Shown: in pieces, positions 59,451 to 60,800 of the stretch
Layout of the letters: each line of letters starts with the position of its first letter
Position numbering within the stretch: the first letter of the stretch is position 1
Assembly (NCBI GenBank): GCA_964406575.1
Contig: CAYOSH010000004.1
Location: forward strand, 68,189-132,188
Source of the DNA: an uncultured Eubacteriales bacterium
GTDB lineage: Bacteria; Acidobacteriota; Aminicenantia; Aminicenantales; Aminicenantaceae
Direction of reading: 5' to 3'
Length of the DNA: 64,000 bases
The notes under the pieces: model-generated
Databases searched by the model: none
The model's input: only the letters and a program-made list of their open reading frames with translations
Told to the model about the DNA's origin: nothing
Translations under genes and position numbers: made by a program

Positions 59451-60800
59451 CTACGAACTGTAAAGCCGCTCCCGAGAGATCTCCAATGCCAGGTTGAACT
59501 CTCCGGCTAAAACCTGTGAGACAAGAGAAGCGGCAAACTCTCTTGCGGTTTCGATCCCCATGATCCGCAGAGCTTCACGAGCGCTGGGTGAGATCACGCC
59601 CTCTCTCGTGGAAAACACGCCCACTTCAACATTGGGCAGCTCCACCCTGTAGACAACATCGCCGTTTACGAGACCCGCGGATATATTCTGGAAGGAGGAG
59701 ACCAGAGGACTCTGGGGATTGACTTGGGCAGCTTTGTATACAGCTGGAATGATCTCTCCCCCCATTCCGGAATAAAAGGCACAACCCAGATTCTGAGCCC
59801 CCATGGAATCGAGCCTCACAAAAGAAAGAAACTTCTGATGATCAACTTTAAAATATGTTTCAAATTCACCGATCGGGACCCTGATCTCAGCCGAGGCGGA
59901 ACGGCCTCTTTTATTCCTTGGGCTGGGTTTAAGGTCGCCATCATGCCCTTGTGCGATAACACTTAGTTTAAAATCGATACCGGATGTTTTGAGCAGCTCT
60001 TCGATCTCGCTTTTGACGGAGCCAACCGCACGGCTGATATCCCCATGTCCTCGAAAATTCCCGAAGGATGCCACATAATCCACATACAGGATAAAATCCT
60101 GCTGATCGTTCACCAGGTCAAAATCGACGGAGCTCACTCTTCCCTTGAACTCCTTCATCCGATCATTCATTTTCTGTTTCAATTTTTCCTGTTGTCCCTC
60201 GATGAGAAGTATGGCCTCTTTTCGTTCGTCCTCCGATCCGAAGATCAACCCATGGCAGCGGACAGCCCGGGCATATTCCTCCACTTTAACGTCCACACCA
60301 CCATACCTGTTGATGGTAAAACAGCCTCTCGTGACGCCGATAGGGCCTAGTCCCGTCCCATAAACGAGAAGATTGGTGAACGTCTTTTCTATGTCGCCCT
60401 TCACCCGGATAAATCCCGCATAGGAATAGTAAGATTCACACCCACCCACATAACTGGCCACTAAGGGAGCAAGCTGACCCAAAATCTCCATTTTGCTGCC
60501 ACACAGGGGACAAATAAAATAATGATCACCTGCATCCAGCTCCAAAGTCAGGTTATCGGAGTTGCAATGATAACGGACTTTATACGGTTTTTCGGAGATC
60601 CGGATTTGCGAGAATTTTGCTCCCGTTGTCTCTTCGATGAATTTTCTTCGGATTAGAGCAGCCACTTTAAAATTATCAGGGGGAGCAAAACCGTATGCCG
60701 ATACGAGCTCGTCTTCAACTCTCCAAGGAGGGAGTCTAGCGGATTTGAGAGAGTCTACACACTCATTTATGGCATTCGGCGCTTTATCTCCGAGCATCAT
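59451..60800 (-). CDS. HMG-CoA-reductase-fold protein with a non-canonical active site and an inserted Cys-rich segment
   Basis: Aligns to class II HMGR across the N-domain (RLPPWRVED/RLPAFRNLS), the TTEGC region (VTRGCFTI), the DAMGxN loop (DSMGAQN) and the C-terminal helices (LRIMGIETAREFAASLVSQVLAGEFNLALEI).

The ENVIG glutamate is T (FTNLLVYG). The protein ends before the flap carrying the catalytic His.

An insert YHCNSD...FICPLCGSKM, about 45 aa with 3 Cys plus His, sits between the N-domain and the ENVIG-equivalent region. Confidence 0.6.
   Translation of the reverse strand: MMLGDKAPNAINECVDSLKSARLPPWRVEDELVSAYGFAPPDNFKVAALIRRKFIEETTGAKFSQIRISEKPYKVRYHCNSDNLTLELDAGDHYFICPLCGSKMEILGQLAPLVASYVGGCESYYSYAGFIRVKGDIEKTFTNLLVYGTGLGPIGVTRGCFTINRYGGVDVKVEEYARAVRCHGLIFGSEDERKEAILLIEGQQEKLKQKMNDRMKEFKGRVSSVDFDLVNDQQDFILYVDYVASFGNFRGHGDISRAVGSVKSEIEELLKTSGIDFKLSVIAQGHDGDLKPSPRNKRGRSASAEIRVPIGEFETYFKVDHQKFLSFVRLDSMGAQNLGCAFYSGMGGEIIPAVYKAAQVNPQSPLVSSFQNISAGLVNGDVVYRVELPNVEVGVFSTREGVISPSAREALRIMGIETAREFAASLVSQVLAGEFNLALEISRERLYSS

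Follow-up and report, generated by a model that had tools for sequence, protein, structure and literature searches.

A ribbon-bearing family of HMGR-like proteins in Aminicenantes and other bacteria, with replaced catalytic and NADPH-contact residues

HMG-CoA reductase (HMGR; HMG is short for 3-hydroxy-3-methylglutaryl) is among the best-studied enzymes, and for a long time its fold was believed to serve one reaction. A second function of the fold, relying on the same catalytic residues, was described only in 2025: FcrA is an HMGR-related fatty acyl-CoA reductase of Halobacteriales and of many bacteria lacking the mevalonate pathway (PMC11948995, ISME J 2025). FcrA keeps the catalytic Glu, Lys, Asp and His, the C-terminal helix and the use of NADPH. 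It is marked by Glu at the position of Ser684 (human numbering), a small residue at Lys735 and Trp or Phe at Leu862, and often carries an N-terminal Lad or ACP domain (PMC11948995). Here we describe a further relative of these enzymes, encoded in a stretch of 64,000 nucleotides (the window) from contig CAYOSH010000004.1 (positions 68,189 to 132,188; assembly GCA_964406575.1) of an uncultured bacterium that is labelled as Eubacteriales and belongs, according to GTDB, to the Aminicenantaceae. Its gene is referred to as the HMGR-like gene.

The HMGR-like protein is about 20% identical to class I HMGRs (EC 1.1.1.34; Methanothermococcus thermolithotrophicus 6HR7/6HR8, human HMGCR 1DQ8). Unlike these, it is devoid of the catalytic tetrad, of the NADPH contacts (Gly656 being kept) and of the His-bearing helix, it contains an insert of about 40 aa, and it is not encoded together with mevalonate-pathway genes. 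Class II HMGRs (Delftia acidovorans 6DIO, Pseudomonas mevalonii) are more distant (16% identity). They have no cis-loop, which is the most conserved element of the HMGR-like protein, and their flap domain of about 50 residues with His381 has no counterpart in it. FcrA and the HMGR-like family are both class I HMGR homologues found in bacteria outside the mevalonate context. FcrA-like sequences in our alignment display E, G/A/S/M and F/W at positions 684, 735 and 862, respectively, and keep the tetrad, whereas the HMGR-like protein has Ala283, Asp331 and Leu446 at these sites and its family groups apart from FcrA-like sequences in the phylogenetic tree. Since the marker residues differ and the tetrad is missing, the protein is neither HMGR nor FcrA. 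Literature searches returned no description of this ribbon-bearing family, and FcrA was the sole related precedent found for a new function.

Fold, active site and zinc-ribbon-like insert

Residues 156-445 of the HMGR-like protein match the Pfam model PF00368 (HMG-CoA reductase) with 43.5 bits against a cut-off of 27. TIGR00533 (class I) is the sole HMGR model matched in the NCBIfam scan, with 58.7 bits and thus below its equivalog cut-off of 441.8; the class II model TIGR00532 gave no match in the same scan. Among solved structures, the archaeal class I enzyme 6HR7 comes closest in sequence (E = 3e-7 for a search with the protein alone and 1.5e-13 for one with the family profile). An AlphaFold2 model built from 39 homologues (pLDDT 88.3, pTM 0.89) displays the three-domain (N, L, S) organization of HMGR, and its Foldseek matches are all HMGRs, with 6HR8 and 6HR7 on top (E = 1.4e-22). 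Because profile, structure and model searches agree, the predicted HMGR fold can be taken as certain, and the protein appears somewhat nearer to class I than to class II. The initial annotation, made from the sequence alone, had recognised the fold, and no profile search placed the protein in an unrelated family; its choice of class II as the matching type is not borne out. Neither Pfam nor NCBIfam holds a model dedicated to the ribbon-bearing family. Segments of the gene are as follows.

59451..60800, minus strand: complete coding sequence of the HMGR-like gene, 449 aa and TAG stop, with the zinc-ribbon insert inside
60600..60800, minus strand: helical N-domain, residues 1-67; LPPW26KVE corresponds to human IPAY479KLE
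60465..60599, minus strand: family-specific insert, residues 68-112, three-stranded and zinc-ribbon-like according to alignments and model
60321..60464, minus strand: first segment of the L-domain, residues 113-160, with VASYVGG as ENVIG equivalent and YGT149G as TTEG equivalent (Thr codon 60356-60354)
59961..60320, minus strand: ferredoxin-like S-domain, formerly NADPH-binding, residues 161-280, with N248-F-R250-G-H252-G in place of DAMGMN
59898..59960, minus strand: cis-loop equivalent, residues 281-301, VIAQGHDGDL290KPSPRNKRGR, the most conserved stretch (Leu290 codon 59933-59931)
59454..59897, minus strand: second segment of the L-domain, residues 302-449, with S-T-R-E-G in place of the GGG loop and the end at Ser449

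To compare active sites, an alignment was constructed from human HMGCR, five canonical HMGRs, eight proteins of a sister clade (see below) and 75 family members. The catalytic part of human HMGCR, numbered from residue 888, agrees with all 30 published residue identities tested. Roles of residues in HMGR were taken from a review (PMC7503714) and from PMC11948995.

All four catalytic residues are affected. Glu559 of the TTEG motif (Glu83 in P. mevalonii) is replaced by Thr149 (in the family T65, P7, S2), Lys691 by Leu290 (L68, Y5, F2) and Asp767 by Asn361 (75 of 75). His866 is missing together with its C-terminal helix, for the last residue, Ser449, aligns to human S865; across the 75 members, the position of His866 is either absent or occupied by R, G or Q. 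The substitution of the catalytic Glu and the termination of the protein ahead of the His-bearing C-terminal part had both been pointed out in the initial annotation, and the present alignment, in which Glu again falls on Thr149 and the His position lies past the C-terminus, upholds them; the losses at Lys691 and Asp767 come in addition. The annotation had, however, located the substituted Glu in ENVIG. The catalytic Glu belongs to the TTEG/EEPS motif, and the Glu of ENVIG, a structural motif, corresponds to Ala115. Likewise, the blocks it had designated TTEGC and DAMGxN do align by position, but their residues differ (YGTG and NFRGHG).

Contacts to NADPH are altered to a similar extent. Ser626 is replaced by Glu217, Arg627 by Phe218, Asp653 by Asn248 and Asn658 by Gly253, and the equivalent of residue 628 is variable. 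Met655 is replaced by Arg250 in all 75 members and Met657 by His252 in 74 of them; Asn870 and Arg871 would lie past the C-terminus. Among the 11 listed contact positions, V805 included, only the equivalent of Gly656 is kept, the others being replaced or absent. For Gly656, as well as for Arg590 (presumably a contact of the HMG carboxylate), His752 and Leu862, the roles are assumed.

The HMG site is conserved in part: Arg590, Asp690, Lys692 and Leu853 are present as Arg181, Asp289, Lys291 and Leu437, whereas Ser684 is changed to Ala283 and His752 to Met346. Two replacements are invariant in all 75 members, namely Lys735 to Asp331, which reverses the charge, and Asn755 to Glu349. Of the CoA contacts, the adenine-stacking Tyr479 is replaced by Trp26 in all 69 members that cover this position, within the motif P-x-[YW]-K-[LV]-E, and Arg568 is kept as Arg158 (R69, K5 in the family). 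As judged from the aligned residues, the hydride-transfer machinery and the nicotinamide site are lost and the anchoring of CoA and carboxylate is partly kept. The view that such a protein is incompatible with canonical HMG-CoA reduction, expressed already in the initial annotation, is thus strengthened, since all four catalytic residues and all NADPH contacts except Gly656 are changed or absent; its errors concerning class II, ENVIG and the metal ligands (see below) leave this conclusion standing.

Neither canonical HMGRs nor the sister clade possess the insert of about 40 aa (residues ~68-112), as revealed by alignment and profile-profile comparison. The insert displays the two-knuckle pattern of zinc ribbons, C-x2-D ... 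C-P-x-C, with two putative metal ligands per knuckle at beta-hairpin turns. Weak matches to TFIIB and TFE ribbon models, below their cut-offs, are in keeping with this pattern. Knuckle 1 is Cys79-x-x-Asp82 (codons 60566-60564 and 60557-60555) and knuckle 2 is Cys97-Pro-Leu-Cys100 (codons 60512-60510 and 60503-60501). Its strands (73-79, 84-89 and 105-112) are modelled with mean pLDDT of 87-95 per 10-residue block. Cys79, Cys97 and Cys100 occur in all 72 members (of 75) that cover the insert, and 69 of these 72 have a residue able to serve as ligand at position 82 (Asp 47, Glu 11, His 6, Cys 5). It is therefore position 82 that is likely to provide the fourth ligand, and the predicted site is Cys3-Asp and not Cys3-His: an insert of about 45 aa with an HC...CPLC signature had been noticed before, and its three cysteines hold, but His78 is variable (His in 13 of the 75 members). 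Zinc ribbons often mediate contacts to proteins or nucleic acids, and the one predicted here could be a peripheral module with a structural or partner-binding role. An iron-sulphur cluster built from five invariant cysteines was considered and rejected: Cys182 and Cys340 occur in 65 and 64 of the 75 members, respectively, and are lost in divergent ones, so that only the ribbon cysteines are universal.

Several observations indicate that the reading frame is real and under purifying selection. The dN/dS ratio (nonsynonymous to synonymous substitution rates) is 0.10 against the homologue at locus L012 (dS 1.68), more distant pairs being saturated. Over 120 homologues with lengths near 450 aa show an identity of 59% or higher, and 123 alignment columns are invariant among 39 sequences. 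Residue replacements remain invariant across the 75 members, which come from Aminicenantes, TA06, KSB1, Zixibacteria and Thermodesulfobacteriota. This agrees with the earlier proposal that the HMGR scaffold serves here either a new activity or binding without catalysis. Invariant positions are found in the cis-loop (14/21), in residues 113-160 (13/48), 339-372 (8/34) and 386-410 (9/25), and not in the N-domain (0/67). Conservation thus peaks in segments that, by correspondence to HMGR, build the inter-subunit cleft and dimer interface; the cis-loop and the ENVIG strand of HMGR belong to this interface (PMC7503714).

Distribution of the family and its ribbon-less sister clade

The ribbon-bearing HMGR-like family is rare. 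A profile search of 1.84 billion representative proteins gave 184 matches, in which the family is confined to three full-length clusters (787, 484 and 481 bits); the next full-length proteins, those of the sister clade, score about 105 bits and canonical HMGRs at most 70 bits. GTDB species representatives contributed 38 loci. Where a lineage is named, it is mostly Candidatus Aminicenantes, and many records are labelled merely "uncultured bacterium" or "uncultured Eubacteriales". Divergent members (43-52% identity) come from TA06, KSB1, Zixibacteria, Thermodesulfobacteriota and one metagenome-assembled genome (MAG) labelled Proteobacteria. For the window, the nearest named relative is an Aminicenantes MAG (78% identity). 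In public records the homologues are named "hypothetical protein", sometimes "hydroxymethylglutaryl-CoA reductase" and once, in a JGI record, "RNA polymerase subunit RPC12/RpoP".

To the sister clade belong P0147, P0148, P0154, P0159, P0161, P0172, P0175, P0177, P0270 and P0271, one of which originates from a Candidatus Aenigmarchaeota MAG. Like the family, its members carry the derived motifs DGDL(K/R)PS-x-(K/R)N-x-RGR, GM-x-x-E and P-x-VSS, have G-H at the DAMGMN site, and have lost the catalytic Glu, Lys, Asp and His. In contrast to the family, they have no zinc-ribbon insert, Glu559 is replaced by Arg and not by Thr, Lys735 is kept, Arg568 is lost, and a C-terminal tail is present.

Neighbour-joining (373 columns, 200 bootstraps) recovers the family, the sister clade and their joint branch in 200 of 200 replicates each, apart from canonical and FcrA-like sequences. 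In profile-profile comparison (hhalign), the family scores 304 against the sister clade and 171 against canonical HMGR. Long-branch attraction is a possible alternative explanation of the grouping in the tree; yet both groups share derived residues (Lys691 to Leu/Met, His752 to Met, Asn755 to Glu, Met657 to His, Ser684 to Ala, and the motif DGDL(K/R)PS...RGR), and these argue for common ancestry. Together they appear to form a distinct, previously undescribed branch of the HMGR superfamily. Two further HMGR paralogues close to the archaeal P0178 type, P0206 and P0224, have active sites that degenerated independently: P0206 is devoid of DAMGMN, DKKP and the catalytic His, and P0224 of the catalytic Glu and DAMGMN. 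Proteins of the pseudo-HMGR kind may hence have arisen more than once.

Genomic context of the sister clade was available for four proteins at six loci, that is, for only four independent proteins. All four reside in the same block, consisting, in this order, of genes for succinyl-CoA-ligase-like beta and alpha subunits, the sister-clade gene and a canonical HMGR (L005:6060-10733, L007:596-5570, L009:127-4835 and L048:1587-6250). Between the sister-clade gene and the canonical HMGR gene, the distance ranges from -4 to +25 nt. The block adjoins, in three of the four contexts, genes for mevalonate kinase, phosphomevalonate kinase or decarboxylase-type GHMP proteins, and one locus also contains HMG-CoA synthase and prenyl synthase. 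The downstream HMGR is fully canonical (the L005 copy scores 403 bits on TIGR00533, cut-off 441.8). The beta subunit of the ligase, which sets acid specificity, is divergent (244.7 bits versus the SucC cut-off of 370), and the alpha subunit passes its cut-off. The block may represent an unrecognised component of the mevalonate pathway. Since it always carries a canonical HMGR downstream, the divergent branch originated as a paralogue that works next to a true HMGR. The ribbon-bearing bacterial family has left that context: in contrast to the sister clade, its genes stand alone, outside such blocks.

Promoter and neighbourhood of the HMGR-like gene

The HMGR-like gene in the window is preceded by the following elements, all located on its own strand.

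60807..60813, minus strand: Shine-Dalgarno-like AAGGAAG, 6 nt ahead of the ATG, read off the sequence
60909..60937, minus strand: sigma-70-type promoter, TTGACA (60937-60932), 17-nt spacer and TATAAA (60914-60909), likewise a reading of the sequence
60947..60961, minus strand: terminator-like hairpin followed by a T-tract, 3' of the preceding gene for a 132-aa protein and separating it from the HMGR-like gene

The promoter lies about 110 nt 5' of the gene. In an alignment, the promoter and a downstream box, TTTCCACATGAG, are kept in seven relatives. With its own conserved promoter and a terminator-like site upstream, the gene is probably expressed independently. The spacer CCCCTCTG and the TTTCCACATGAG box just past the -10 element (60895..60937, minus strand) are kept among relatives with 72-78% protein identity, and these two conserved elements may constitute an operator site. 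Conservation of the leader beyond the promoter was sought in the alignment of relatives and none was seen. A riboswitch or other leader RNA was ruled out on this ground and by Rfam, which gave no match, whether the gathering threshold was applied or E-values as high as 1 were allowed.

Genes adjoining the HMGR-like gene in the window encode DUF2207, DUF2784 and a beta-lactamase-fold hydrolase. The same cell-envelope neighbours, including a serine hydrolase, and the absence of mevalonate genes had been reported initially, and both were found again: Pfam and NCBIfam scans detected no mevalonate-pathway gene among the 45 main open reading frames of at least 125 aa in the whole window, nor is any such gene adjacent to the HMGR-like gene in loci with Pfam-annotated neighbours. 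The search of related genomes that the initial annotation had suggested yielded the 38 GTDB loci, and no neighbour is shared across 41 loci. A conserved operon was accordingly rejected, as clustering of neighbours at these loci gave no universal partner.

Recurrent neighbours (a 130-aa secreted protein, a beta-lactamase-fold hydrolase and a 577-aa lipoprotein) are all exported and subclade-specific. Loci in the subclade of the window have DUF2207, DUF2784, the 130-aa secreted protein, the HMGR-like gene, an exported beta-lactamase-fold hydrolase and 5'-nucleotidase. In divergent phyla, the HMGR-like gene has unrelated neighbours. In 16 of 41 loci, the 132-aa signal-peptide protein (in the window at 61124..61522, minus strand) is encoded no more than 5 kb from the HMGR-like gene, mostly directly upstream; it has no match in Pfam, NCBIfam or PADLOC. 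The 577-aa lipoprotein (L001:8234-9967; lipobox LAC; weak "putative esterase" match in Pfam) has homologues in L018-L022, L027 and L045, and in seven loci of one Aminicenantes subclade its gene precedes the HMGR-like gene by 27-157 nt, both lying on one strand. A defence system was rejected, there being no PADLOC matches.

A GHMP kinase is encoded at 46420..47478 (minus strand), in a sugar-utilisation region. Its candidacy as mevalonate kinase was dismissed: it scores alike on heptose-7-phosphate kinase and mevalonate kinase models, and below every NCBIfam cut-off. Because its closest solved relatives are sugar/heptose kinases, it is probably unrelated to the HMGR-like gene. In another subclade, six loci have an orthologue (L001:6960-8018, 58% identity) at a distance of about 2 kb from the HMGR-like gene. 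Further, the window contains a dense glycan-utilisation region (16919..37512) with GH2 beta-galactosidase, GH113, SASA esterase, GH88, GH20 hexosaminidase, two phosphoglucomutase-family genes, a glucosamine-6-phosphate isomerase-family gene and sodium:solute symporters. Such a gene set is in keeping with the proposal that Aminicenantes live saccharolytically.

Candidate functions and their meaning

We favour the explanation, with a probability of about 0.5, that the HMGR-like protein is a functional cytoplasmic protein, namely a non-redox enzyme or sensor that binds a CoA thioester or another anion and belongs to a deeply divergent branch of the class I HMGR superfamily. It would still assemble as an HMGR-like dimer or tetramer. 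Since Trp26, Arg158, Arg181, Asp289 and Lys291 are kept, the ligand would still be bound in the old HMG-CoA cleft, and it would probably be a CoA thioester or other anion bearing an adenine nucleotide or a carboxylate. The redox residues seem to be replaced by a new invariant polar set (Arg250, His252, Asp287, Asp331, Glu349, Asn361, Glu392 and Glu400), which suggests non-hydride chemistry on the cleft ligand, or its sensing, in place of HMG-CoA reduction. The position of sister-clade genes next to succinyl-CoA-ligase-like genes and canonical HMGR links the branch to thioester and mevalonate chemistry.

Several points weigh against this explanation. The changes of Lys735 to Asp and of Lys691 to Leu remove two positive charges that bind HMG, and the ligand may be unlike HMG at all. 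Cleft loops 288-290 and 365-369 are modelled with low confidence, and the apparent clustering of invariant residues around the cleft comes from mapping by homology. In HMGR, moreover, the cleft is also the dimer interface, so that conservation there could reflect assembly and not ligand binding. Finally, the neighbourhood gives no functional clue, there being no universal neighbour and the recurrent ones being exported hydrolases.

The most serious rival, which we consider possible but clearly less probable, is that of a pseudoenzyme: a non-catalytic regulatory or scaffolding subunit that assembles through the HMGR interface, the zinc ribbon, or both. Such a subunit might pair with an HMGR or FcrA paralogue whose gene lies in another part of the genome. 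Loss of all catalytic residues is what such a subunit would display, zinc ribbons are commonly used for the contacts it would require, and conservation falls on segments of the HMGR dimer interface, namely the cis-loop and the ENVIG strand (PMC7503714). The tight packing or overlap of sister-clade genes with canonical HMGR is also expected for subunits of one complex. On the other hand, no HMGR-family partner or constant neighbour lies nearby in the 41 loci of the bacterial family, and fixation of the replaced sites (Arg250, Asp331, Glu349 and Asn361 in every member, His252 in all but one) would sooner be expected of a site in use. In a 1:1 heterodimer with canonical HMGR, both composite active sites would, as deduced from PMC7503714, be crippled. 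As the cleft and the dimer interface coincide, present data do not separate the ligand-binding enzyme or sensor from the pseudoenzyme.

It is unlikely that the protein is a cryptic reductase, catalysing NAD(P)H-dependent reduction of an acyl-CoA or aldehyde with different catalytic residues. The ferredoxin-like S-domain is kept and well modelled by AlphaFold2, a Gly-containing turn (R250-G-H252-G) is left at the start of the helix that bears DAMGMN in HMGR, and FcrA sets a precedent for neofunctionalised HMGR homologues in bacteria without the mevalonate pathway (PMC11948995). However, FcrA and FcrA-like sequences keep the tetrad and the C-terminal helix, of which the family keeps none; moreover, 10 of the 11 listed NADPH-contact positions differ, and both contact Met residues are turned into Arg and His.

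Very improbable is a nucleic-acid-binding or transcription factor in which the ribbon and the basic loop KPSPRNKRGR touch DNA or RNA and the HMGR-like body acts as sensor. Residues 42-105 weakly resemble ribbons of TFIIB and TFE-alpha, at 15.9 bits on PF08271 (cut-off 29) and 16.9 bits on NF004910 (cut-off 180), with E-values of 0.01 and 0.003; the cis-loop is strongly basic, and there is the RPC12/RpoP name of the JGI homologue. These matches nevertheless stay below every curated threshold and concern the ribbon only, while the N-terminal helices align to an ordinary HMGR N-domain, as seen from P-x-[YW]-K-[LV]-E, rather than a winged helix. Moreover, homology equates the basic loop with the HMG-binding cis-loop, and the ribbon-less sister clade keeps it too. 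A decaying, functionless relic of HMGR, in line with the loss of all catalytic residues, is effectively refuted by the intact frame of 449 codons, the same-length homologues and invariant columns, the low dN/dS, the conserved promoter and the occurrence in several phyla.

A broader reading is more doubtful, although we rate it above the last three rivals. The family and its sister clade might constitute a third functional class of the HMGR superfamily, after HMGR and FcrA. The HMG-CoA pocket would have been rebuilt for non-redox chemistry on a thioester of the 3-hydroxy-dicarboxyl-CoA type, such as retro-Claisen cleavage, hydrolysis or transfer, with citryl-CoA or HMG-CoA-like compounds as substrates. 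In DPANN-type archaea, the protein would work with the dedicated succinyl-CoA-ligase-like enzyme directly upstream of canonical HMGR. The two would provide a hitherto unrecognised step that feeds the mevalonate pathway, by entry or by salvage, much as ATP-citrate lyase supplies acetyl-CoA. The ribbon-bearing derivative of Aminicenantes and other sediment bacteria would have been recruited to a mevalonate-independent, housekeeping-like role.

The HMGR fold thus survives with its whole redox apparatus swapped for different, equally conserved residues, and this new set points to chemistry or sensing so far not tied to the HMGR scaffold. The fixed place of the sister clade between a CoA ligase and a true HMGR offers a concrete, testable handle on the possible new activity. 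For Aminicenantes, Zixibacteria and related uncultured phyla, the label "hydroxymethylglutaryl-CoA reductase", assigned to these proteins by some pipelines, would falsely imply mevalonate capacity.

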